64,000 nucleotides of DNA from an uncultured Chloroflexia bacterium (lineage in GTDB: Bacteria > Chloroflexota > Limnocylindria > Limnocylindrales > CSP1-4). Below, in pieces: positions 5,224-19,270 of the stretch. Under the pieces are notes generated by a model, which worked only from the letters and a program-made list of their open reading frames with translations, did not search any database and had not been told where the DNA came from. Numbering within the stretch: the stretch's first letter is position 1; each line of letters begins with the position of its first letter. The position numbers and the translations under genes are program-made. Location: assembly GCA_963813535.1 (NCBI GenBank), contig CAWEZH010000002.1, positions 160,001 to 224,000 on the forward strand, in the 5' to 3' direction.

Positions 5224-5302
5224 CCGTCGATCGGGTTCCACGGTTGTCGGGGTGGGTACCATCGAACGAGAACGGCCTCGACTGACAGACGGGGGAGGAA
5301 CC

Positions 5303-7093
5303 ATGGCAGACGTCCGAGGCAACCCCTGGGAACACGATCCAGGCCCACCCTCGGGGAGCGGCTGGGCGGAGGTCTTCGCCGATACCCCCAACTATCGCGG
5401 ACTCGGCAACGAGGTCGTCGGGCGCGAAGCGTTTCGCTGGCACCACGGTCCGATGTTCTACCGCGGTCGCCTGGACGGTTCCGCCAAGGTCATGGTGGTC
5501 GGGCAGGAGGGTGCCCAGGACGAATCGCTCGCGCACCGTTCCTTCACCGGCGGGACCGGTGCCCGGATGCAGCATCTGCTGCGGTTCCTCGGTCTCGATC
5601 GTTCGTACCTGTTCGTGAACTCGTTCGTCTACCCGATCTTCGGCCAGTACACGCTCGACCTCCGGAAGCTCGCCCAGGATCCTCGATCGCCGATCGTGAG
5701 CCACCGCAACCGGATCTATGACAAGGCGGTCGTCGATGGCGACGTGCGCCTGGTCATCGCGGTCGGTCGTGCGGCGAAGGAGTCCGTATCCACATGGATC
5801 GAGTCGCACGGAGGGACGGCCCAACCCGAGGCCCTGCACACCGCGACGCTGGGCACCTTGCCGAACCGGGTTCGAGTCGTGGGTGTGGTGCATCCGGGAA
5901 GCGCGTCGGGGGGCTCGACCAGCGCTATCAAGGCTGACTTCGTCCGCGCCATCGGCCGAATCCGCGACTGGCTGCAGGCCGACGCGGGCTGGTTGCCCGC
6001 CGATCCCGGCATGACGCGGAACCTCACCGCATCCTTCCCGTATTCCTCGGCCCCGATCCCGTACCGGGACTTCCCGTTCGGGACATGCCCGCGCCTCGGT
6101 CGGGGCGGGACGTCAAGCAACCGCAGCGACGACCAGCGAGCGATCCGCCTGTTCTCGGCAGCCGGCAAGTACAACGCCGCAGGGGCCCACCTGACCGATC
6201 CGTCGTCGGCGACTGGGACCAACCAGGGGTACGACGACGACCCGGGCGACCTGCCGTATGAGCCGCCGCGCGCCAGTCCGCTCGCCTTCGACGCTGGCCC
6301 GCCGACCAACTTGGCGCGCCTGTTGATGGGGGCCGAGGCGGGCTTCGAGTGGCCTGACTTCGCCTCGCTCGGCGTAACGGCGCACCCGTCGTTCGGCGTC
6401 GGACCGATCTATCGCGGCCGGTTCGGAACCCTGAGCCTCGTCATCCTTGCCGATCAGCGGTCCGCGGACGACACATTCAGCGGCCGAGCGCTCACTGGCG
6501 ACGCGGGTCAACGATTCCAGGGCGTCCTGCGTGCGGCCGGGCTGACGAAGCGCTACCTGGTCATCCGCACGCTGCCCGTCGACACCATGGATCTCAGCGC
6601 GGCCAAGCGCTTGTCGTTGGTCGATCACCCCAAGGTGCGGGCGATGCATCGCGAGCTCCTGAGCCGCGTTCGGTCCGCGAACGGCGGGGTCACCGCGCTC
6701 CTCGCGATGGGCCCCGGCGCCCGGCGGCTCGCCCCGAATGTCGTCCCAGCCGGGCTCGACGTGATCGAGCTCGCAGCGCATGGGGAACCGGGATTCCAGG
6801 CGTCCTGGCAAGCGGCACTGGCGCAGCTCGCGGGGCGCACCTACACCAAGGACGTTGCCAATCCGAGCTTCGATGCCCCGACCACCCGCAGTCAGGTCCC
6901 ACGGATCGATCTGCCCTATGGCACGCCCCGGTGGGTCGGGAGCTCGGGGGATCGAGGCGTACGGCCGATGGACACCGACATCGACAAGCCAACGCCGGAC
7001 TATCTCAAGCTGTTCCTGCCAGCCTGGGTCGCGGGTCTCGCGGCGGCGCCGCTGAGCCCGGCGGAGCAGACCGCGGCCGACCAGCTCAGCTGA
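5303..7093 (+). CDS. Uracil-DNA glycosylase superfamily protein with two tandem UDG-like domains
   Basis: RBS GGGGAGG. Domain 1 VMVVGQEGAQDE..RSFTGGTGARMQHLL..VHPGS; domain 2 LVILADQ..RALTGDAGQRFQGVL. Confidence 0.75.
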   Translation: MADVRGNPWEHDPGPPSGSGWAEVFADTPNYRGLGNEVVGREAFRWHHGPMFYRGRLDGSAKVMVVGQEGAQDESLAHRSFTGGTGARMQHLLRFLGLDRSYLFVNSFVYPIFGQYTLDLRKLAQDPRSPIVSHRNRIYDKAVVDGDVRLVIAVGRAAKESVSTWIESHGGTAQPEALHTATLGTLPNRVRVVGVVHPGSASGGSTSAIKADFVRAIGRIRDWLQADAGWLPADPGMTRNLTASFPYSSAPIPYRDFPFGTCPRLGRGGTSSNRSDDQRAIRLFSAAGKYNAAGAHLTDPSSATGTNQGYDDDPGDLPYEPPRASPLAFDAGPPTNLARLLMGAEAGFEWPDFASLGVTAHPSFGVGPIYRGRFGTLSLVILADQRSADDTFSGRALTGDAGQRFQGVLRAAGLTKRYLVIRTLPVDTMDLSAAKRLSLVDHPKVRAMHRELLSRVRSANGGVTALLAMGPGARRLAPNVVPAGLDVIELAAHGEPGFQASWQAALAQLAGRTYTKDVANPSFDAPTTRSQVPRIDLPYGTPRWVGSSGDRGVRPMDTDIDKPTPDYLKLFLPAWVAGLAAAPLSPAEQTAADQLS

Positions 7094-7095
7094 CC

Positions 7096-10000
7096 ATGCC
7101 CGCTGCACCGCTTCCCCGCTATGGACTGCGCGGGCGGGTGGTCACGATGAACGCAGTCCGCGACGTCGTCGCGGACGGCATCGTGTGGGTCGCCGACGGC
7201 TCGATCAGCGACGTGACACCGGCGAACCAGACGCCGGCCGCCCACGCCGGGTCTCCGGTCGTCGCCACGGCCGGCACGATCTACCCGGGCATGATCGAGC
7301 TCCACAACCACCTCGCCTACAACACGCTGCCGTTGTTCAGGATCCCGCGGCTCTACACGAAGCGAGAGGAGTGGCAGGGTACCCGCGGGTACCGACGGTA
7401 TGTCAGCGGCCCCGCCGGGGTCGTCGCGTCGCTGCCGGACTTGATCCGGGCGACGATCCGCTACGTCGAGTGCAAGAGCCTGATCGCGGGCACGACGACA
7501 TCCCAGGGGCTGACCCTGCGCGCGGCCCCGATCAAGCACCTCTACAAGGGCATCGTCCGCAATGCCGAGCAACCGGACGCGGCCGGCCTGGACGCGGCGC
7601 GACCCAAGATCGGCGACGTGACCCCGGAGGGCCGTGAGTCGTTCCGCAAGTCGCTGGCTGGCAAGGGTGCCCGGATCGTCCACCTGGCCGAGGGGCTTCC
7701 GACCTCGAAGGCCCACGACCACTTCACCGACCTCCAGGCGCCCAACGGCACGTGGGCGATCGGGCCGAAGTTCGTCGGCATCCATTCGACGGCTCTCACT
7801 CCGTCCGACCTCGCCATCGTCGACCAGCTGGGCGGATCGATCGTCTGGTCGCCGTTCAGCAATCTCGCCCTGTATGGCGGGACGACCGACGCCAAGACCG
7901 CCATGGATCTCGGGATCAAGGTCGCCCTCGGCTCTGATTGGTCGCCGACCGCGAGCAAGAACCTGCTTCATGAGCTCAAGGTCGCGCGCATCTGGAGTGA
8001 CGATCAGCAGCTCGGCTTCACGGATCGCCAGCTCATCGAGATGGTGACCGTGACGCCCGCGGAGATCCTCGGCTGGCACGGTCGTCTGGGCTCGCTCGAG
8101 CCTGGCAAGCTCGCCGACATCACGGTCGTTTCCGGCAAGACGGGCGAGCCGTATCGCCATCTCGTCGACGCGACCGAGTCGGACATCCGCGTCGTCGTCA
8201 TCGGTGGGATCGCCCGCTACGGGACGCCCGCGATGCTGGCGAGACTCAGCCCTGTCGATGAGCAGGCCGACGTCGCCGGCAAGCCTCGGGCGTTCCATCT
8301 CGACGTGCACGATCCCGATCCGGTCCTGGGTCCCATGGGACTCACCGACGCGACCGCGACCCTAGCCGATGCGCTCGCGCACATGCCCGAGCGCGCCGCG
8401 GCCATCGGGTCCGTCGAGCTCGGTGTCGTTGCCGCCCAGGCCGTGGCCGGCGCGGACGCGGACGAGCGCTGGTTCCTGGAACTCGACCAGCCACCCATCG
8501 CCGGCGTCTCGGCGACCCTCTTCGACGGCATCGCCCCGGCATTGCTGGACGTCGTGATCGGCGCCGAGAGCTTCGCGTCGATCGCCATTGCCCTCAAGCT
8601 CGATCCCCTAGCGACCGAAGGCGACGACGCGTTCTTCGACATGCTGGCCAACCTCGAGAACCTCCCGGCAGTCCTGCGGGACACGCTGCCGGGCCGCTAC
8701 GGCGAGGTGCCGCGGGCTCCCACAGAGGGGGTCGGGCTCGAGGACGATGACCTGGCGATCGCACCTCTACCGCTGTCGGAGTTGCTCGAGCGTGCGGGCG
8801 ATCTGACCCTCGCCGATCGACGGCTCATCGTCCAGCAAGCGATGGTCCTGCTCGACCAGGCCTACGTCCATCTGCCGATGAAACGGGCGAGGTACGCGGC
8901 TGATCCGCTGCAGCGCCTGCGACTGATGGCGCACCGGCTTGAAGCTCTGGCGCCGACCGACGAGCTCGGCCCCGAGAGCCTGTTCCATGAGGAGCTCATC
9001 GAGATCTTCACCGCCCTTCGTGACCTGCACACCCACTACGTCCCGCCCGAGCCGTACCGGTCGCACACGGTGTTCCTGCCGTTCCTCGTCGAAGAATGCA
9101 CGCGGGCGGGTCGGCTGCAGTACCTCGTGTCCAAGGTCGCCCACGGAGCCGAGCTCGACCCGTCATTCGCACCGGGGGTGGAGGTGACCCACTGGAACGG
9201 AACGCCGATCCGACGGGCCATCGAGCGCAATGCCGAGAATCAGAGCGGAGGCAACCGGGCGGCTCGGATGGCACGCGGGCTCGACGCGCTGACGATCCGC
9301 ACGCTCGGCCGCACAGCGCCACCGGATGAGGACTGGGTCGACGTGGCCTACCTGACCCCAGAGGGTGGCGAGGGACTGGTTCGCACCCGCTGGAGCACCT
9401 ATCAGCCGCTCGAGCCGTCGCCCTTCGGGGATCTCGAGCAGGCATTCGCCAGTGCGGTCCCGGTCAGGTCCGGCAATCGGGGCCGGCTCGGCGCGCTCGG
9501 TGTCGACGACCAGACCGCGACCGTCAACCTGGTCCGGCGCGACCTCTACGCTCGAGGCTGGCAGCGGACGGCAGCCTGCCGGGTCCGACGAACTGGTCAC
9601 CGAGCTGCCCGGGATCCTGCGCGCAAGGATCAGGGGGACGAGTGCGGGGGACGTCCTGCACATGCGGATCTTCACGTTCGTGGTCCCGGATCCCGGGGCG
9701 TTCGTCCAGGAGTTCGTGCGCCTCGTGCAACTCAGACCCAGCGTCGGCTTGATCGTCGACGTCAGAGGCAACGGCGGCGGCGACATCCGCGCTGCGGAGC
9801 GCCTGCTGCAGGTCATGACGCCCCATCCGATCGGACCCGAACCGACGCAGTTCATCGTCAGCCCATTGGTCCGTCGCCTGTGCATGGCCAACCAGGGTGG
9901 CCCGATCGACCTCACGTCCTGGGCGCCCTCGGTCGTCGATGCGGTGGAGACCGGTGCCACCTTCTCGACTGGGTTTCCGATCACGTCGGCAGTGGACGTG

Positions 10001-10648
10001 AATGACCTCGGCCAGGGCTACTACGGTCCGGTCGTCCTGATCACGGATGCCCGCTGCTACAGCGCCACGGACATCTTCGCCGCCGGATTCCAGGACCACG
10101 ACATCGGGCGGATCGTCGGGGTCGCCGAGCGTACAGGTGCCGGCGGAGCGAACGTGTGGACGCACCCTCTGCTCCGGGCGCTGCTACCCGACCAGGACAA
10201 TCCGCTCAAGGAGCTTCCGAGACAGGCATCCTTCCGCGTGGCGGTACGCCGCACGACGCGCGTGGGGTCGCATGCCAGCGAGCTCCTCGAGGACCTGGGT
10301 GTCTTCGCTGACACGGTGCATGCCATCACGGACGCCGATCTGCTCGAGGACAATCGGGACCTGATCGAAGCCGCCGTTGCCGCGATGCAGGGGCGCGCGA
10401 CGAGGCGACTGGTGGCCGACGTGTCGCCGGCGGGCGATGGCGTGACGATCGACGTGGCCACGACCAACCTGGACCGGGTCGATGCCTATCTCGACGGTCG
10501 CCCCGTTGCTTCCGAAGACGTGCAGGACGATGAGTGCACGTTCGTCCTTCCGCACGCGATGATCAGCAACGGCGGGGAGGTGCGGCTGGAAGGGTTCCAA
10601 GGTGGCACGCTGAGCGCCGCGCGGCGACTCATGATCCCGATCGGATGA
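7096..10648 (+). CDS. Amidohydrolase (deaminase-like)-S41 peptidase fusion, frameshift ~9560
   Basis: ELHNH, HLAEG, GIH, LGSDWSP, GKLADI in N-half. S41 motifs IVDVRGNGGG, CYSATDIF, TGAGGANVW in ORF 9365-10648. The S41 N-terminal helices (YVHLPMKRA) are in frame with the amidohydrolase. Confidence 0.8.
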
Positions 10649-10683: not shown

Positions 10684-11022
10684 TCAGCCCTCGGGTTCGG
10701 CCTCTTCGTCGCCCCACGATCTTCCCTCGCCGATCCGCGTCCGGCGCGATCGCTGGAATGCCGCGGACTGGCGCAGGTTCCATGCCTGCACGCCCATTCG
10801 GGCGACCTCGTCAAGACCGCCCAGGTCGTCCGGAACGGGGCCTTTGAACATCCGCACCGTCTCGGGCGTTTCGGCCGACCCGGCGGTCCCGCTTTCCGCG
10901 AGCTCGACGACCAGTGCCCGATCGCCGTATGCCTGGACCGGGCGACCGCCAGCGGCGGCGAGCCACGCCCGAACATCGTCGGGAGAAGCGGCGGGGGCCA
11001 GGACCACGAAGTACTCGGCCAT
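10684..11022 (-). CDS. Small protein homologous to the N-terminal (pro)domain of the divergent metallopeptidase
   Basis: VQAYGDRALVVEL / GLDEVARMGVQAWNLRQS..GEGRSWGD align by eye with LHRYGSRVLIGEV / GLSEAEAVGLAAWDLRVS..LDGQRWDA of the 11068 gene. Confidence 0.75.
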   Translation of the reverse strand: MAEYFVVLAPAASPDDVRAWLAAAGGRPVQAYGDRALVVELAESGTAGSAETPETVRMFKGPVPDDLGGLDEVARMGVQAWNLRQSAAFQRSRRTRIGEGRSWGDEEAEPEG

Positions 11023-11067: not shown

Positions 11068-12527
11068 ATGGCGAAGCGTGACGAGATCGCCAAGCAGGGA
11101 CTCATCATCCTCGACGCCAAGGGCGTCGCCGACATCCGCGGGACGGCGGGGCGGCTCGAGGACGTCGGTGTGAGCGTCCTCCACCGCTACGGTTCGCGGG
11201 TCCTCATCGGTGAGGTTCCACCAGCGGGTGGCCGGGGCGTGGCTGCCGAGCGGGGCGTGCGCTCGTTCCACGCGGGCGCCGTGCGTGCCAAGCCTCGTGG
11301 CCTGAGCGAGGCGGAGGCCGTCGGGCTGGCGGCGTGGGATCTGCGTGTTTCGCGGCGATACGCAACCGCCAAGGCGAAGCGGCCACTCGACGGTCAGCGC
11401 TGGGACGCCGCGGGCGTCACCCCACTCATCCCGCCAGACGGCCCGCTCATGACCCATGTCGACGATGAGGGGCCGGCCCGCGCGTTCCGCGCGGTGGGCG
11501 ACGAGACCAGCGCCTATCTCATCGGCGCCGTCGCCGTGGGAGCTCATCCTCGTCGAGGGTCCCACAGCGGACCTGCAGTTCAGCGAGGCCGAGCGCACGA
11601 AGGTCGTCGCCGAGGTCCAGGAGGGATTGACCTGGCTCGGCACCCGGGAACCCAAGGCCGGTGTCTCCTTTGCCTACGACATCCGGATCGTGCAGGTGGA
11701 TCGAGCCCCGAACCCGGCGCTGAGCGGCTACGAGCCGCTCGAATCGCACTGGCGCGACCCGGCAATGGCGAAGCTCGGGTTCGCCCCGAACTTCGGGGGC
11801 GTCAAGGAGTACGTCAAGGCCATCCGCGCCAACCTCGCCACGAAGTGGGCCTACGTCGCGTACTTCACGAAGTACCCGGTCCAGCACTTCGCCTATGCCT
11901 CCAAGCCGCGCCTGGTCATGCACTACGCCAACGACGGCTGGGGGCCCGACAACATCGACCGCGTCTTCACGCACGAGACCGGCCACATCTTCGGCTGCCC
12001 GGACGAGTACTCGGCAAGCAACTGCTCGTGCACCACGAAGGCGGGCTATCTGCGTGAGGTCAACGGCAACTGCCAGAACTGTGCGACGTCCTTCACGCCG
12101 TGCCTCATGGCGGGGAACACCTGGGAAATGTGCGCCTTCACGCCTGCCCACCTTGGCTGGCGCGACACCGATGGTGATGGCGCGCTGGACCCGGTCGATC
12201 CGGTCGGGAACCCGAACCCCCTGATCGATCTGGGCGGGTTCTGTTCGCGGTTCCCGTTCATCTGCCGGCTGGTCGGCCTCGGCGCCACAGCCGGCGCTGT
12301 GGCCGGCGACGATCCGGGCTGGCGGTCCGGCGTCACCGGTGCGATCCCCGCCGAGCCGCGGGGCGAGGCGGTCCCGGTCGAGTTGCTCCGCCAGGTCCTG
12401 ACCGCGGATGAGATGGCGCGCGTGGAGGCCGCGGTCCGTGCCGAGGAGGATCTGCTACCTCGAGGCCCTCGAGCGCAAGCTTCGGACCGCAGCGGACCAG
12501 ATCGCCCGCGAACGAGCCAGTCGCTGA
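11068..12527 (+). CDS. Metzincin-type zinc metallopeptidase (HExxHxxGxxD) with N-terminal prodomain; frameshifts ~11541 and ~12452
   Basis: RBS GGAGG. HETGHIFGCPDEY, Met-turn CLM, Cys-rich segment, DTDGDG Ca-binding-like motif. Reconstructed end YLEALERKLRTAADQIARERASR* at TGA 12525-12527. Confidence 0.75.
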
Positions 12528-13024
12528 TGGATACCGCGGAGATCGAGCAAAAGGTCCTGGCGACGTCGGCGAGTGGTAATGACGCTCAGCTCGGCGGACC
12601 GGTCCGCGTCCTCGACACGGCCGAGGGCGCCGACGGTGGCTCGACGTACCAGGTGTCGGCGTCCCTGCTCGTACCGATCGACGAGGACGATCCGGACCTG
12701 ACCGGGGTGTCCATCGCGGTCCCTGTGACGGCCACCGTCGAGATCGACGACGACGGGGCGATCGTCGGGATCGATGTGCCGGTCGACGCGGCCGCCCAGC
12801 GCGAGGCGAGGTCGTTCACTCGCAACCTGATCGCCCGTGGGGCTGTCAGCGGGCTGGCGGCCAGCGGACCCGTGCGACGCGGTCCTGGGCTCGCCACCCG
12901 CCCGACGCACGAACTGACAGTCGACGAATTCGGTCGGCGGGTGATCCGCCGGACGGGATTTACCGCGACTAGCGCGCCGGCCATGCCGGAAGACACGCGC
13001 GCCCACGATGGAGACAGCCCGTAG
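12527..13024 (+). CDS. Small protein homologous to the C-terminal domain of the downstream metallopeptidase
   Basis: TGATG coupling at 12525-12529. EARSFTRNLIARGAV..PTHEL..RRTGF vs QARAFARSLVANGDV..PSHEI..VRVGF in the 13041 gene. Confidence 0.7.
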   Translation: MDTAEIEQKVLATSASGNDAQLGGPVRVLDTAEGADGGSTYQVSASLLVPIDEDDPDLTGVSIAVPVTATVEIDDDGAIVGIDVPVDAAAQREARSFTRNLIARGAVSGLAASGPVRRGPGLATRPTHELTVDEFGRRVIRRTGFTATSAPAMPEDTRAHDGDSP

Positions 13025-13040
13025 CGGCAAGGAGCGTCCC

Positions 13041-14531
13041 ATGGCGACCATCACGTACGTCCCGAACGACCCATTGGCGAGTGGCGGACCACCCACCAGA
13101 TCGACGAGGGCCAGCAACTACCCACGCGGTGACATCGCCAAGTTCGATATCCAGCCGACGGCGGTCGCCGGCAAGTTCGACCCGCACACGCCGGAGTTCC
13201 AGTACTGGCAGGCCAAGCTTGGGCTGATCGCCGGGCTGCGTGCCTGGCGCCAGATCGATGGCCGCTTCATGCGACGCTGGTTCGGGGACCAGAACCAGCT
13301 AGCCGTGCGCACTGACGCCGGCGACGACCTGAACGCGTTCTACGATCGCGACAGCCTGCAGTTCTTCTCGCACACGTTCGGCGGGGTGACAGTCAACTCC
13401 GCCGAGAGCGTGGACGTCGTGACGCATGAAGAAGGTCATGCCTTCCTCGACGCCATCCGGCCGGACTTCTTCGATGTCCCGTTCATCGAAGTCGGAGCGC
13501 TCCACGAGGCGTTCGGCGACTGCATGGCGATCGTCACCGCGCTCGAGGACCGCGCCATCCGGGACGCCGTCCTGGCGTCCACCCCGGACCTCGCGGCCAA
13601 CCACTTCGTGGAAAGCCTGGCCGAGGCGCTCGGCGACGCGATCGCGCGGGAGTTCGGAGCGGGCAGCGTCGACGTCGGAGCGCTCCGCCATGCCCTTAAC
13701 ACGTTCCAGTACGCTGATCCGACCTCACTGCCACCGGATGCCCCCGCGGACCAGCTCTCCGGTGAGGTCCACAGCTTCGCCCGGGTGTTCAGTGGCGCTT
13801 TCTACGACGTCATCCGGAACGTCTACATCGGCGGCACGCGGAAGGATTCGCTCGCGCTGCGGAAAGCCTCCCGGACGGCGGGCAAGCTGCTAGTGGCAGC
13901 CATCCGGATCGTGCCCGCCACGCCGAGCACGTTCCGCGGCGTCGGCCAGCGGATGCTCCAGGTCGACGTGTCGAAGAATCGCGGAGCCAATACGGCCGCG
14001 ATCACAGAAGCGTTCGCGGGTCATGGGATGTCACTGCCCGCCCCGGCCACGTCCCTGCCGGTCCCCCTGCCCAGGCAGACCCGCGCCGGGGCGGCTCCGG
14101 AGCTACGCCGGCGGCTCGCGGTCCCCCCAGGCACCAGGATCGAGATCACACCCGTCGATTCCGACCTGCATGGCGAGATCGCCCACGTCAGCGCGTACCG
14201 GCCGTTGCCCCTCGATGGCGCCGGGCTTCAGGGCGTCCGGATCATGGTGCCGGGCATCGCGCGTGTGGCCACCACCCGCCGCGGCCGGTCGATCACCGGC
14301 GTCCTGGGTGAGGTCACCTCGTCCGAGGGTGATGCGGCGGTGCAGGCCCGTGCCTTCGCGCGCTCGCTGGTCGCGAACGGCGACGTGCGCACCGCCCCAC
14401 GGGCGGCCCGACGGCTCGCCGCCGCTCCGCAGCCGCCGACGGCTCGGGTGCCGCACAAGCCCAGTCACGAGATCCGACTCGTCGGCGGCGAGCCGACGCT
14501 CGTCCGGGTCGGCTTCTCCCACCGGCACTGA
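13041..14531 (+). CDS. M36/M4-like zinc metallopeptidase, no signal peptide
   Basis: RBS AAGGAG. NAFYDR, VVTHEEGH, LHEAFGD, EVHSF. Confidence 0.85.
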   Translation: MATITYVPNDPLASGGPPTRSTRASNYPRGDIAKFDIQPTAVAGKFDPHTPEFQYWQAKLGLIAGLRAWRQIDGRFMRRWFGDQNQLAVRTDAGDDLNAFYDRDSLQFFSHTFGGVTVNSAESVDVVTHEEGHAFLDAIRPDFFDVPFIEVGALHEAFGDCMAIVTALEDRAIRDAVLASTPDLAANHFVESLAEALGDAIAREFGAGSVDVGALRHALNTFQYADPTSLPPDAPADQLSGEVHSFARVFSGAFYDVIRNVYIGGTRKDSLALRKASRTAGKLLVAAIRIVPATPSTFRGVGQRMLQVDVSKNRGANTAAITEAFAGHGMSLPAPATSLPVPLPRQTRAGAAPELRRRLAVPPGTRIEITPVDSDLHGEIAHVSAYRPLPLDGAGLQGVRIMVPGIARVATTRRGRSITGVLGEVTSSEGDAAVQARAFARSLVANGDVRTAPRAARRLAAAPQPPTARVPHKPSHEIRLVGGEPTLVRVGFSHRH

Positions 14532-14534
14532 CCG

Positions 14535-16902
14535 TCAACCGGCCTCCGGCTCCAGCCGCATGGCCGGGATGGCCGAAGAACTGGTAGGCCATGTAGGTCG
14601 ACGACGTCGTCTCGGGGGTGTCGCGGAATGCGGCGCGCTCCGTGCGCATGATCTCGGCGGGTGCCTCGCCACGCATCGCCCGCTCGTAGAAGCGGATGGC
14701 GATGTCTCGAGCGAGTCGGTCGTCGATCGACCACAGCGGTGCGATGACGCCTGCTGCGCCGGCGAACAGGAAGGCCGCCGCCAGACCGGCATGATCGCCG
14801 AGGAGTTGGCTGCCGCGGCCGACCTGGCATGCGTTCAGGAAGACGAACGGATGGCCGCGCAGCGGGATCCCCTTGACGGCCAGGGGATCGAGGGCAGAGC
14901 CGTCGACGAGGATCAGGCCATCCCTGGCCTCCTCGGCCTCGTAGGTGCCGTGCACGGCGAAGTGGATGACATCGGCGGCCGGACGCCCCCTCAGGAGGTC
15001 GAGGATGCCGCCGATCGTGGCATCCACCGGCATCCCCTCGTAGATGCGCACGATGTCAGCGGCCTCGGCCTCCGCCTCGGCAAGGCGCTGCCAGCCTGGC
15101 AGCTCGTAGACGCCCGATACGGCGGCGACACCCTGGACGGCCACGCTCATGGGCGGCGGGAGGGCGGGCCGCCGCTGGCCGAGGACCCAGCGCCCGACCG
15201 TCGCCTGGGCGGCAAGGAAGGGCGGGAGGTCGGGATCGAGCGGCGGATCCACGACGGCGAGCTCCCACGGGACGTACGGCTCGGCCGAGAGGAACAGGAT
15301 GGACGGCGGCCGGGCGCCATTCCGTGTCGCGATCTTTGACAAGGCGTTCCAGAACTCGATCGGCAGCTGCTCGGCGATGGTCAGCCCGATCCCGCGCAGG
15401 GCGACGAACTGCGTCGGACGACCCTCCACCTCCTGCATCTCGTCGACGATCCGACGGAGGTCCGCCGCAGGATCGCCGCCGATATCGATACGGATGGGGG
15501 CGTCCGGCATGTCGATCGTCGGATCGGCCGCGAGCAACTGGACGAGGAGGCCACCGCTCGCCTCGGATTCCGCACGCTCGATCCGTACGGTCAGGTCGGG
15601 CGCCACCTGGCCAGCCGGCAATGACAGGTCGACGCCGGGGGCAGGTGGCTGGGCCGGAGCCGACGCCAGGAGATCGGCCGACCGGACCAGGGCGACCGAA
15701 CGCACGGCGAGACCGATCGGATTGCCGTCGATCGAGTACATCGCGCGGATCGAGGTCGACATGACCGGTGCAACCTGGGCATCCGGCACGAGCTGGATCG
15801 TCACGGACGGGTAGGGGGCCTCCGCTGTGACCGGCAGGTCGATCCGCCAGGACGCGCCGGCGTCCGCGAGCCGGAGGCCGTCGGCAACGAGTTGGATGGT
15901 CATCGTGTACGCGCCGACGCTCGATGGCGGTCGGTGGAGCGCCTCCCCGACGACGCGTGCGTCCGGGCGGTCGGCGAGCCCCACGACGAGATCGAACGGC
16001 TGCTCGGCGACGACGGCATCCGGACAGGACAGCCGGGCGTAGGTCGTCCGCGGCGGATCAGCCTCGCTCCCGATCGTCGCGCCGCCGGCGCCGATCGTGG
16101 CACCGGGCCCGACGGCTTCGGGCTCAGGCACGGTCGTCGGCCCGGCGGGTCCACCGGGGCTTGGCGGGGGGCTTGGGGGGCGTGCGGCGGGCGGACCGGC
16201 TGCCGCTTACGGCCGCGCTCGGATGCCGCCTGGGTCAGGCCGCCGACGACCTGGTTGAGCACCCCGCTGATCGCCCCCGGGATCGCCGTCCAGAGGACTG
16301 CCGAGGTCGGCGTGATCCCCGTGATGCCGGCCTGCTGGGCGAACAGCAGGAGGCCGATCCCTATCACCACGCCACCCACGACGGCGAGCACACCGTTGCG
16401 GCGCCCCACAGTCAGGAGCGCACGGAGCGCCATGAGGACGCCGACCACGATGATCCCGATCGCCACGAATCCGGCCGGGGTCCCGAGCGGCGAGCGGCCG
16501 GTCACGTTGACCCAGCCGTGGACCTGGCAGACATCGGTCGCCGCGGTGACTTCGTACAGACCCGACCCGAACCGCGCGTAGTCGGAGACGGGAAGCGTCT
16601 CCGGACCATTCGGTGGTGGGGGCGATCGGCTCGTCGGCGATCGTCCAGGTGGTCGGCCAGACGCTGATCGCGATGGTCGCCCGGGTCACCGGTTCGAGGG
16701 ACTGGCCGAACACCCGTGCCACGGCATCGGCGTCGATCGGGATCGCCCGATCCGGACTGTCGGCATCGCCGAGGGAGTGCCGGTCGATGAAGACGACACA
16801 CTGTCCGATCGTCTGGGCACTGACCGGCGCGGAGAGGATCATGACGATGGCCACGCCGAGCAGGAGAGCGGCGGCGGACCGCACGCGGGGACGGGGCCGC
16901 AT
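14535..16902 (-). CDS. Membrane-anchored CHAT (caspase-like) protease: signal peptide, extracellular domain, TM helices, Pro linker, C-terminal CHAT; about three frameshifts
   Basis: Joined from ORFs 16207-16902, 15900-16505, 14314-16131 and the 14535 stop. VPWEL, VIHFAVHG, FVFLNACQVG, IAPLWSIDD. Confidence 0.7.
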
Positions 16903-16918
16903 CAGCTAGGCATCGGCG

Positions 16919-19270
16919 TCATCGCCAGCTCGGGTCGATGCTGTCTCCCCCTAAGGACTTTGTTAGGTCTTCTTCCTTCCCGGTGGCCAGAACACGCACC
17001 AGGATGTGCCACTCGTCTCCGACGCGGCGGTAGAAGGCGATCCGGTCACCTTCGGGCGAATAGACGGGACCGCCCTCGTCGGCCGAATCGTCGGTGATTC
17101 GGCTCTCCTCCCTCGTTTCGACGTCGATCGACCAGATGTCCCGTCTCGCGCGAGGCTCGTTGCGCGTGAACACGAGTCGCCCGCCGTCGGGGTGCCATCT
17201 CGGGTTGCGGTCGACGGTACCGCCGGACGTCAAAGGCTCGGGATCGCGACCTGGTACCCAGATGTAGATCGATAAGACATCGTCATTGCTATCGCGGTTC
17301 GACGTGAACGCCATCCGCGCGCTATCCGGGTCCCAAGCCGGTGAGCTGTCATCGGCGCCTCGTTGCCCCACGACCGGTTTCGGTAGACCAGCCCTGAGCG
17401 AGGAAACGCGCCAGATGTCGTTCAGCTGCTTGTTCGTCTCGTCGCGGTCGCTGTTGAAGTAGATGAACTTGTTCCGTGCGAAGTCCGGGACGCGGTCGTC
17501 CGCAGGGCCACTCGTCATCGGGGTCTGATTCCCACCATCCTTGTCCATGGTGTAGATGTCACCGGTGCCGTTGTTGATCCGCGTGAATGCGATGTGCGTC
17601 CCATCGGGCGACCACCTCGGCCACCGGTCCGGAACGCTGTTATCGGTGAGCCGGTCCGGCTTGAGGGTGTCCGGATCGATGAGGTAGATCTCGGAGTCCT
17701 CGCCGTCGGTACCGTCCGGGTCGAACTCGAACAGGATCCCCGTTCCGCCCGTCGGTGGAGCGATGCTCGCTGACGCGGAAGCGTCGCTTGGGGGACCACC
17801 CGTCGGTTGGGTATCCGATGCCGAGAAGGAGGCGGATGCAGTGCCGGAGCCTGGGCTCGCGCTTGCCCCGCCCCCGCCTCCGAAGATGTTGACGGCCAGG
17901 AGGAGCACAAGCAGGACGGCTCCGCCGCCGGCCGCGAGGATCGCGATCGGCCGCCAGGGCGGCGGCGGCGGTGGCGGCACCGGCGTGGGACGCTCAGGTT
18001 CCGGTGCTTCAGGCTTCGGAGGTTTGAATAGCTCCTCGAGTTCATCCTGGCTGAGCTCGGGGACTGTCTCCGGTGGCTCCGGTTCGGGAGCTTCCGGCTC
18101 GGGCGGCGCCGGTGGTACGGCGGTACCAGTATCGGCGGCGGGGGCGCCTCGACCACTGGGGCCGCCGCGACGTTGAACAGCACGCCATCCGGTGTCTGGA
18201 GGTACAGGACCGGCGTGCCCCATTCCAGCGTGTCCTCGAAGGCGGTGGCGAGACCCTTCCGTGCCTCGGTGAGCGCCGTGTCGACCGGGATGCCCCGCGC
18301 GACCGCGCCATAGAACGATCGGCTCAGTTCGATCGCGGCCTCATCGGTGATCTCGTACTGCATCGCCACGACGGCCGGAGTGCCCTTGCGGACGAGCGTG
18401 CCCGCCGTGCTCGAGAACACGTCCGTGACGTCGCTTCGACCGGTGTCGCACGCGTTGAGGACAGCGAGGCGAAGCGGTTCGTGGTCCCCGAGGATGCGTC
18501 CGAAACTCGTGGCCCGCTTGTAGTCGGCCTTGCCGTCGGGGCGGGCGAAGGCAACGATGCCCTCCTTGCGGTTCTCGTCGAAACCGCCGTGGCCGATGAA
18601 GTGGAGGATGTGCCAGGGGCCCTCCCACAATGCCTCCTGGAAGTCCTGCCACGTCTGCCCTGGGATCCAGGTGAGCTCGATCAGGCCCTTGGCCTGTATC
18701 GACTCCATCGCGGCGGTGAGACGGGTTCGCTCTCGCTCCACATCCAGCCCGTCGAGGTCCGAAGGACTGACCGCGACCGCCAGGATGCGGATCGGCGGCG
18801 TCACGAGGAGCGGCTCCATGCTCGACGGCAATCGGGATGTAGCGGACCAGCGGCGAACCGGTCGAGAGCGTGACGAAATCGCCGCGAACCGGGTCGAAGA
18901 GGTACTCCCACGGGAGCGCCGCGAGTTCCGCGTCGTCGCACCGGAACTTGATCCGCATGCCGGACTGCTGGTGCTTTGCCTCCTGGCGGCTCGCCTCGTA
19001 GCGCGACAGGACGTCGCCAGAGAACAGTGCGGTCCACAGTTCCTGGCCGAACTCCTGGACCGTGCGGCTCTCCGGTGATGAGATCCGGCGGCGCGTCCCG
19101 CTCGAGCGGAGGAGCGCGATCTGGAGGGCCTGCAGCCGGTTGGTGAGCGTCGGCTGGTCGAACGGGAAGCGCATCGATGACGTCGCCTCGCCAGCCGGCG
19201 ACCGCACCTTGACGGTGTACGACCCCGCTTCGCCGCCAGTGACATCGATCTCGAAATCGAGGTACTGCAC
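16919..19270 (-). CDS. CHAT protease with Pro-rich linker, single TM and C-terminal TolB/PD40 beta-propeller; two frameshifts
   Basis: GTG 19270 after GGGGAAGG. LPWEYL, HILHFIGHGG, VLNACDTG, EWGTPVLY; TM IAILAAGGGAVLLVLLLAV; repeats PRWSPDG, PAWDPD, PRWHPDG, PVYSPEG. Confidence 0.8.

Follow-up and report, generated by a model that had tools for sequence, protein, structure and literature searches.

An acidic free-standing copy of the basic C-terminal domain of a thermolysin-like protease is a candidate regulator encoded beside the enzyme in an uncultured Chloroflexia bacterium

A 64,000-nucleotide stretch of DNA from an uncultured Chloroflexia bacterium (hereafter the window; G000:C2:160001-224000, from a 3.28-Mb genome of three contigs with approximately 68% G+C) carries on its forward strand a gene for a 165-amino-acid protein (12527..13024) whose product is a free copy of the domain that forms the C-terminal end of the metalloprotease encoded by the next gene. 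We refer to this gene as the solo gene, and to the metalloproteases encoded on its upstream and downstream sides as protease 1 and protease 2, respectively. The assignment of the solo gene draws on its family of homologues, on an AlphaFold2 (AF2) model and on the charge of its product. From sequence comparisons, the product of the free gene probably regulates protease 2, and the more specific proposal that this acidic protein acts on protease 2 by binding to it is the reading that we tentatively favor.

The homology of the free copy and the protease 2 tail is modest when the two proteins are simply compared with each other, wherein BLASTP reports 39% identity over 76 amino acids (E 2e-4). If the evidence ended there, chance similarity, or even a solo reading that is no gene, would have to be considered. 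However, a hidden Markov model (HMM) built from 37 free copies aligns its positions 38-147 with residues 378-493 of the 496-residue protease 2 of the window at 35.7 bits and matches the C terminus of all 101 protease 2 homologues (median 31.9 bits), whereas the controls, consisting of shuffled sequences, reversed sequences and 119 protease 1 homologues, reach at most 3.6 bits. Comparison of free and attached copies with hhalign likewise gives a probability of 99.1% and an E value of 4.7e-19 over 110 columns, and every motif quoted in the original prediction, which had proposed this homology and had named a lack of statistical support as grounds for abandoning it, was recovered. With these controls and a conserved family in hand, the chance explanation is refuted and its probability is vanishingly small. 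In the AF2 models, the helices and strands of the solo protein and of the protease 2 tail also follow one another in the same sequence. When all six frames of the genome were scanned with the domain profile, exactly two copies were found, side by side: the solo gene (254 bits) and the protease 2 tail (41.9 bits).

The two copies carry opposite charges, as the original prediction had noted from the acidic and Arg-rich character of the two sequences. Free copies have a median isoelectric point of 4.86 and a median net charge of −9 (n = 37; −12 for the window copy), whereas attached copies have a median isoelectric point of 11.49 and a median net charge of +9 (n = 78; +11 for the window copy). 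The catalytic part of protease 2 has a net charge of −6. Distant solo proteins (−1) and copies of the domain fused to HAD-like hydrolases (0) are near neutral, and therefore the charge split is specific to the paired paralogues. Because the charges are opposite, this pattern favors a model in which the acidic free copy and the basic attached copy pair with each other.

Indeed, the two genes are consistently found together. Among eight loci from species-representative genomes (L007-L014), protease 2 lies downstream of the solo gene in all eight, either adjacent or near-adjacent. Protease 1 is present in six of the eight, and none is encoded within approximately 6 kb upstream in L013 and L014. 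The solo gene of L014, which thus lacks protease 1, has its own GGAGG upstream. These same two loci carry, between the solo gene and protease 2, an extra membrane protein of approximately 170 amino acids with a C-terminal hydrophobic segment (6430-6883 in L013; ~6515-7033 in L014), a homologue of which was not found in the genome of the window by tblastn (E ≤ 1e-3). A more distant example comes from a scan with P0446, whose sole result was a low-GC metagenome contig of 1268 nt (L017). This contig encodes the tail of a divergent protease-2-type gene (180 amino acids, 2-544) followed 18 nt later by a free copy (128 amino acids, 563-949), an order opposite to that in the window, with the attached copy first and the free copy second. 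The A3 profile matches the protease-2-like tail over two collinear stretches at 23.7 bits (E 1.8e-7), compared with 4.5 bits for the highest-scoring of 200 shuffles. Judged from this one contig, the attached-plus-free pair is not confined to one lineage.

Protease 2 starts at the ATG at 13041, which follows an AAGGAG and lies 16 nt past the stop codon of the solo gene. This start corrects an earlier one at 13008 and was chosen because the homologues begin with MAT(V/I)xYxPNDP. The catalytic part comprises residues 1-344 (13041..14072, forward strand) and is supported by the AF2 model, by Foldseek and by the invariant zinc-site residues, and the attached copy of the domain comprises residues ~345-496 (14073..14531, forward strand) and is supported by the HMM, by hhalign and by the genome scan. 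An HEEGH motif (13425-13439, residues 129-133) is followed by HEAFGD at residues 155-160, and H129, E130, H133, E156 and D160 are invariant among 78 aligned homologues. Protease 2 thus has the zinc ligands of the M4/M36 clan, which are an HExxH motif and a downstream Glu within ExxxD.

The AF2 model of protease 2 (pLDDT 91.8, pTM 0.93) begins its catalytic fold within the first ~40 residues and places the attached copy as one rigid body with the enzyme. With this model, Foldseek finds 30 PDB chains at E ≤ 1e-3, all of them M4 or M36. The best match is 3nqx (E 1.8e-7, TM 0.64 normalized to the target), and the others include the M36 entry 7qfy (E 3e-7), further M36 entries and, by its title, the autoprocessed complex of vibriolysin MCP-02 (3nqy). 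Pfam scores are under the gathering cut-off for M36 (16.9 of 23.3 bits), M4 (14.9 of 22.4 bits) and M4_C (14.4 of 24.4 bits). On the predicted structure, protease 2 is a divergent relative of thermolysin and fungalysin at the level of the fold that lies outside the curated sequence families. No FTP or PepSY propeptide was found in it by Pfam, and no signal peptide was seen when the sequence was judged by eye. The attached copy is present in all full-length homologues among the matches listed, at 99-100% coverage. It is preceded by a conserved linker (...GM.LPAP..SLPVPL..., residues ~329-345), and its His/Arg pair is His476 and Arg489.

The original prediction had called for an HMM of the shared domain and a survey of its fusion partners and solo occurrences. 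When 1.84 billion cluster representatives were searched with a profile, 165 matches were returned at E ≤ 1e-3, most of them proteins of 120-170 amino acids, and three domain architectures were recognized: solo proteins, fusions to M4-like proteases and fusions to HAD-like hydrolases. The solo group spans ~95-200 amino acids. About 35 representatives (among P0351-P0445), approximately 300 amino acids in length (~277-318), carry the domain at the C terminus of a HAD-like hydrolase, and PF00702 is recognized in 14 of the 35 (best E 3.2e-8). One protease-2-type protein, P0440 (505 amino acids), is among the matches. In all of these profile matches the domain sits at or near the C-terminal end. Several PAS-repeat proteins (P0360, P0369 and similar) were not accepted as family members because their matches involve only ~45 profile positions in several stretches. 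The same domain profile has no match in 400 other Chloroflexota genomes, and a metagenome scan that started from P0350 yielded no relatives.

Every alignment of the domain contains an invariant Pro (in VPV) and an invariant His (in T/S-H-E), and the final ...G-R-R-V-I-R-R-x-G-F stretch includes a Gly and an Arg that vary little or not at all. The AF2 model of the solo protein (pLDDT 78.9, pTM 0.69) predicts an alpha+beta fold (H3-16, E22-33, E39-50, E61-73, E79-83, H88-103, E128-132, E138-142), wherein a helix, four strands and a second helix precede a C-terminal hairpin. The domain is without a match in Pfam, NCBIfam or PDB sequences. The sole PDB match by sequence profile, lumazine protein, was rejected at E 0.072, and a Pfam search of 39 distant solo proteins at E ≤ 10 gave 28 families with one member each, including PepSY_2 at E 0.14, which we regard as noise. 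The free protein has no usable match by look-up in the ESM Atlas, and Foldseek finds none for its model at E ≤ 1e-3. With VIA-align, the best match is the stefin 5zc1 (Z 7.2, root mean square deviation 2.7, 68 aligned positions, residues 1-87), which falls in the background range of the tool, and several cystatins at Z 5-7 are likewise at background level. Literature on this domain or on its gene cluster was not found, although supplementary files were outside the search. Thus, the domain is an undescribed alpha+beta module characterized by an invariant Pro (VPV), a Thr/Ser-His and a Gly...Arg-x-Gly-Phe near its C terminus.

In the window as given, the solo gene is nested in-frame within a single open reading frame (ORF) of 522 amino acids (11456-13024); the original prediction had pointed to it as a gene hidden in the ORF track. 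The overlap that it reported as the start of the gene, a TGATG, is present: the TGA at 12525-12527, which is the stop codon of protease 1, shares a base with the ATG at 12527-12529, and in the window as given this TGA is in another frame. The indel suspected near 12452 also is found. One extra base, the T at 12453 in GGATCTGCTACC (forward strand), brings protease 1 and the solo gene into one reading frame in this assembly. The sister genome G024, which is 95% identical over 3.85 kb, is without one base at 12453 (GGATC-GCTACC vs GGATCTGCTACC), and the extra base is absent from L007-L011. When base 12453 is removed, the upstream reading becomes ...EEDRYLEALERKLRTAADQIARERASR and terminates at the TGA. 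Protease 1 then ends ...EEDRYLEALERKLRTAADQIARERA(S/R)R* at this codon, which is the same end as in the intact homologues of ~480 amino acids and in L007-L011. Alignment of the intact homologue P0002 by tblastn places the frame switch between 12451 and 12456.

Relatives with intact sequences agree with this organization. The TGATG junction is present in all six loci that have protease 1 (L007-L012), and in L008, L009, L010 and L011 protease 1 occupies a single frame, which is not the frame of the solo gene. At the level of reads, the check proposed for the site near 12452 was made through public runs that represent relatives of the organism rather than the window's own sample, the best matched run containing a 0.20 fraction of the sampled words. 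All three contigs that span the site (two from run X2, one from run X3) are without one base at 12453/12455, with contig depths there of 2.8 and 3.4 of 6.2 in run X2 and of 2 of 2 in run X3; runs X1 and X4 have no cover at 12453. The solo gene is thus a separate gene in these relatives. A near-length search, spanning 90-289 amino acids, finds 59 homologues of the solo protein (112-228 amino acids, E ≤ 0.01), and 32 of 40 aligned rows begin with MD or MH at the N terminus. The region 12527-13024 is therefore a real gene that belongs to a family of small (~125-180 amino acids) free-standing proteins, and in relatives the stop/start TGATG couples its translation to that of the upstream metalloprotease. 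The statement that protease 2 has a detached duplicate of its own domain accordingly stands for the family at large, and for this particular genome the detachment of the free copy depends on the single base 12453.

Protease 1 is a zinc metalloprotease of ~486 amino acids (11068..12527, forward strand), supported by homologues of ~480 amino acids that are collinear with it over three frames. In the window, extra bases at ~11541 and ~12453 spread it over these three frames. The motif HETGHIFGCPDEY at 11972-11986 conforms to the HExxHxxGxxD pattern of snapalysin/M7-like enzymes, and matches to Pfam M7 and Reprolysin_5 and to NCBIfam snapalysin and M6 are weak and all under the cut-off. The best 120 homologues of the upstream protein are nearly all ~480 amino acids in length, cover ~58% of the 522-residue ORF and share the same tail. 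Only one of these 120 also covers the solo part, namely P0001 (642 amino acids), and it does so by way of an out-of-frame linker that indicates a frame slip. The contig of P0001, the second fused assembly, is 367 kb long and also encodes the protease 2 homologue P0208. No copy of the domain was found on protease 1 itself, whose 119 homologues reach no more than 3.0 bits with the solo HMM.

At least five one-base frame breaks, as judged against intact homologues, occur within ~10 kb of conserved genes here (~9570-9578, 11541, 12451-12456, ~14563 and ~16598), and because of this density we take the extra T at 12453 to be most likely an assembly error. That it is instead a real mutation private to this genome is highly unlikely. 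The break at 11541 is common to the window and G024, whose protease 1 has four breaks in total. As a group, the breaks could reflect a systematic assembly error or else the decay of protease 1 in this lineage. These observations bear on whether protease 1 of this strain truly ends in the domain or is a decaying pseudogene. The window does read through without a stop, P0001 is a second fused form in another assembly, and the shared break at 11541 together with the four breaks of G024 would suit decay. However, the linker LLPRGPRAQASDRSGPDRPRTSQSL arises when a conserved helix-like tail is read in the wrong frame, and the window and P0001 are the only fused forms found, both of them frame slips. 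The breaks moreover fall among otherwise conserved genes, are scattered and hit different genes in the multi-hundred-kb assemblies of the relatives L011 and L012, and are missing from the L008 and L014 assemblies. A genuine fusion or a decaying protease 1 is thus very improbable. Whether an artifact of one base or a private mutation, the fused ORF would be mis-annotated by gene callers as a 522-residue protein.

We propose that the attached basic copy would be an integral regulatory domain of protease 2, an enzyme that has no usual N-terminal propeptide, and that the free acidic copy would be a trans-acting partner that binds the enzyme. The free copy may pair with the oppositely charged attached copy, or may replace it on the enzyme, and this pairing or replacement would hold or release protease 2 activity. 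Protease 1, the solo protein and protease 2 would be co-expressed as one unit that sits in a conserved multi-peptidase cluster (S41, M7-like, M4-like and CHAT). The basis of this proposal is a separate, co-oriented and close gene, a paralogous domain next door, a conserved adjacency and an opposite charge. Several observations weigh against it. The HAD-like fusions mean that the domain need not act on proteases and is not a protease-only module. It is with protease 1, rather than with protease 2, that the solo gene shares the TGATG coupling. The invariant His and Arg could mark the place where a ligand is held instead of a surface for protein contact, and the resemblance to cystatin/PepSY-like inhibitor folds (Z 7.2) is at background. 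Although domain trees place the attached copies in one clade (SH-aLRT 99), the placement of this clade shifted between two tree runs and composition bias was flagged, and therefore we claim no direction of descent.

As the main alternative, the domain might instead be a general, autonomous module for ligand binding or sensing. The ligand of the free protein would be a small molecule, a peptide or a metal, and the resemblance of this protein to the tails of protease 2 and HAD-like proteins would reflect a shared input domain rather than mutual binding. The three architectures are consistent with this possibility, as are the large number of distant solo proteins, the Pro and His that never vary and the Gly and Arg near the C terminus that are invariant in most alignments. 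From the predicted hairpin (E128-132/E138-142), His128 and Arg142 should face each other. A ligand module does not, however, account for the adjacency of free and attached copies in all eight loci and in the distant L017, nor for opposite charges that occur only in paired copies, and no known ligand-binding family matches the domain in Pfam, NCBIfam or PDB sequence profiles. On balance we judge it unlikely, though deserving of serious weight.

The original prediction had preferred yet another arrangement, wherein the free copy links the two proteases. In this form the domain would be a homotypic adaptor, similar to the effector-associated domains (EADs) of NTP-dependent conflict systems, and would bridge protease 1 and protease 2 in one complex or cascade. 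For EADs, the same domain is described in adjacent genes and homotypic pairing is proposed (Kaur, Burroughs, Iyer, Aravind 2020, PMC7159879). The present case is similar in that copies of one domain lie in adjacent genes (here 16 nt apart, and in 8 of 8 loci), one of them fused to an enzymatic effector, with CHAT/caspase-like peptidases nearby, in Chloroflexota-type organisms. The translational coupling of the free gene to protease 1 would also fit an adaptor, as would a second free/attached pair that involves protease 1 and is described below. However, in those systems the other copy belongs to a VMAP/vWA-MoxR, GAP1 GTPase or STAND core, whereas here it is a bare single-domain protein that matches none of the families of Pfam, and a Pfam scan of 16 neighboring ORFs finds no such core and no NTPase or vWA family. 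The absence of the domain from protease 1, wherein the fused forms are frame slips, also argues against a bridge, and the claimed link is further weakened by L013 and L014, in which the pair of solo gene and protease 2 is kept without protease 1. We therefore hold an adaptor role to be a slim prospect.

Bacterial Spi/SpeB and the staphostatins belong to the repertoire of free protease inhibitors. By analogy, the closest precedent for a free copy that regulates protease 2 appears to be the free propeptide-like inhibitor, as represented by MEROPS families I29 (CTLA-2alpha, crammer, BCPI) and I9 (subtilisin propeptide-like proteins, the Plasmodium SUB1 inhibitor) (PMC4089206, PMC6993865). In both cases a small protein is homologous to a noncatalytic domain of a protease, a relationship found here in the profile comparisons (hhalign 99.1%, HMM 101 of 101) for a protein that is also encoded beside its protease, and the presumed role would be to hold the enzyme in check. 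The present system differs in that the shared domain is C-terminal rather than an N-terminal propeptide and belongs to no known inhibitor family. Its enzyme, a metalloprotease of the thermolysin fold, has neither signal peptide nor propeptide, and inhibition is putative. The copies also are oppositely charged, which suggests pairing of copy with copy over simple mimicry.

Enzymes of the thermolysin family are normally secreted and silenced by an N-terminal propeptide, and in M4/M36 precursors this FTP-PepSY propeptide serves as both intramolecular chaperone and inhibitor. Protease 2 resembles these precursors in its catalytic fold, in its zinc-site motifs and, in the model, in an extra alpha+beta domain packed on the enzyme. 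The solo model also has weak fold matches to 5boi (Z 5.4) and 7atk (Z 5.3), which we take to be PepSY-containing chains. However, the extra domain of protease 2 is C-terminal and has no FTP/PepSY sequence match that passes a threshold, and no secretion signals were seen. The usual layout of a signal peptide and an N-terminal FTP/PepSY propeptide is therefore not that of protease 2, the signal peptide being judged by eye.

The wider neighborhood is also conserved. In L009-L012 the order is a UDG-like gene, an amidohydrolase-S41 gene, a gene for a 112-residue protein (reverse strand), protease 1, the solo gene, protease 2 and a CHAT gene (reverse strand). The UDG-superfamily protein that heads the cluster has 613 amino acids in the window (5252-7093, forward strand; PF03167, E 8.9e-9). 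It is followed by a fusion of an amidohydrolase with a tail-specific-type S41 peptidase (7093..10648, forward strand; Pfam Amidohydro_1 and Peptidase_S41), which is broken at ~9570-9578 in the window and is a single ORF of 1183 amino acids in L009; it is kept upstream in all four of these loci. The gene for the 112-residue protein (10684..11022, reverse strand) was recognized by tblastn as a free-standing paralogue of protease 1 over the ~110 residues at its N terminus. It is 31-35% identical to the N terminus of protease 1 in L008-L012 (E 7.6e-7 to 6e-9), which agrees with the first of the two pairs named in the original prediction. A second free/attached pair in the cluster thus lies at 10684-11022 (reverse strand) and 11068-11400 (forward strand). 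Neither the 112-residue protein nor the N-terminal stretch of protease 1 matches a Pfam family.

A CHAT (caspase-like) gene follows protease 2 in all seven loci that reach that far. In the window it is convergent with protease 2 (14563..16905, reverse strand; Pfam CHAT 1.3e-23) and is broken near 14563 and 16598; in L014 it is a single ORF of 847 amino acids, and this intact homologue has an N-terminal membrane region. A PD40/TolB-like beta-propeller protein (16919-18223, reverse strand) lies between this protein and a second CHAT protein (17515-19245, reverse strand), which PADLOC assigns to SAVED_CHAT at 50.5 bits. No PADLOC model was matched by either protease, by the solo gene, by the S41 gene, by the 112-residue ORF or by the first CHAT gene.

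Protease 2 is a cytoplasm-type relative of the thermolysin enzymes in which a C-terminal domain of no recognized family is obligatory, and an oppositely charged free paralogue of this domain is encoded alongside. If the free and attached copies interact, they would represent a new way to keep an intracellular metalloprotease latent, would give a function to an unannotated domain family and would offer a handle on the multi-peptidase/CHAT cluster of soil Chloroflexota. A broader proposal is that oppositely charged paralogues serve as a switch beside intracellular thermolysin-like proteases of unrelated bacteria, wherein the attached copy locks the enzyme and the free copy unlocks it, or the reverse. 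We consider this distinctly unlikely, but if true it would constitute a new control of a propeptide-less M4-type protease, and the conserved four-peptidase cassette (S41, M7-like, M4-like and CHAT) may decide cell fate or defense.

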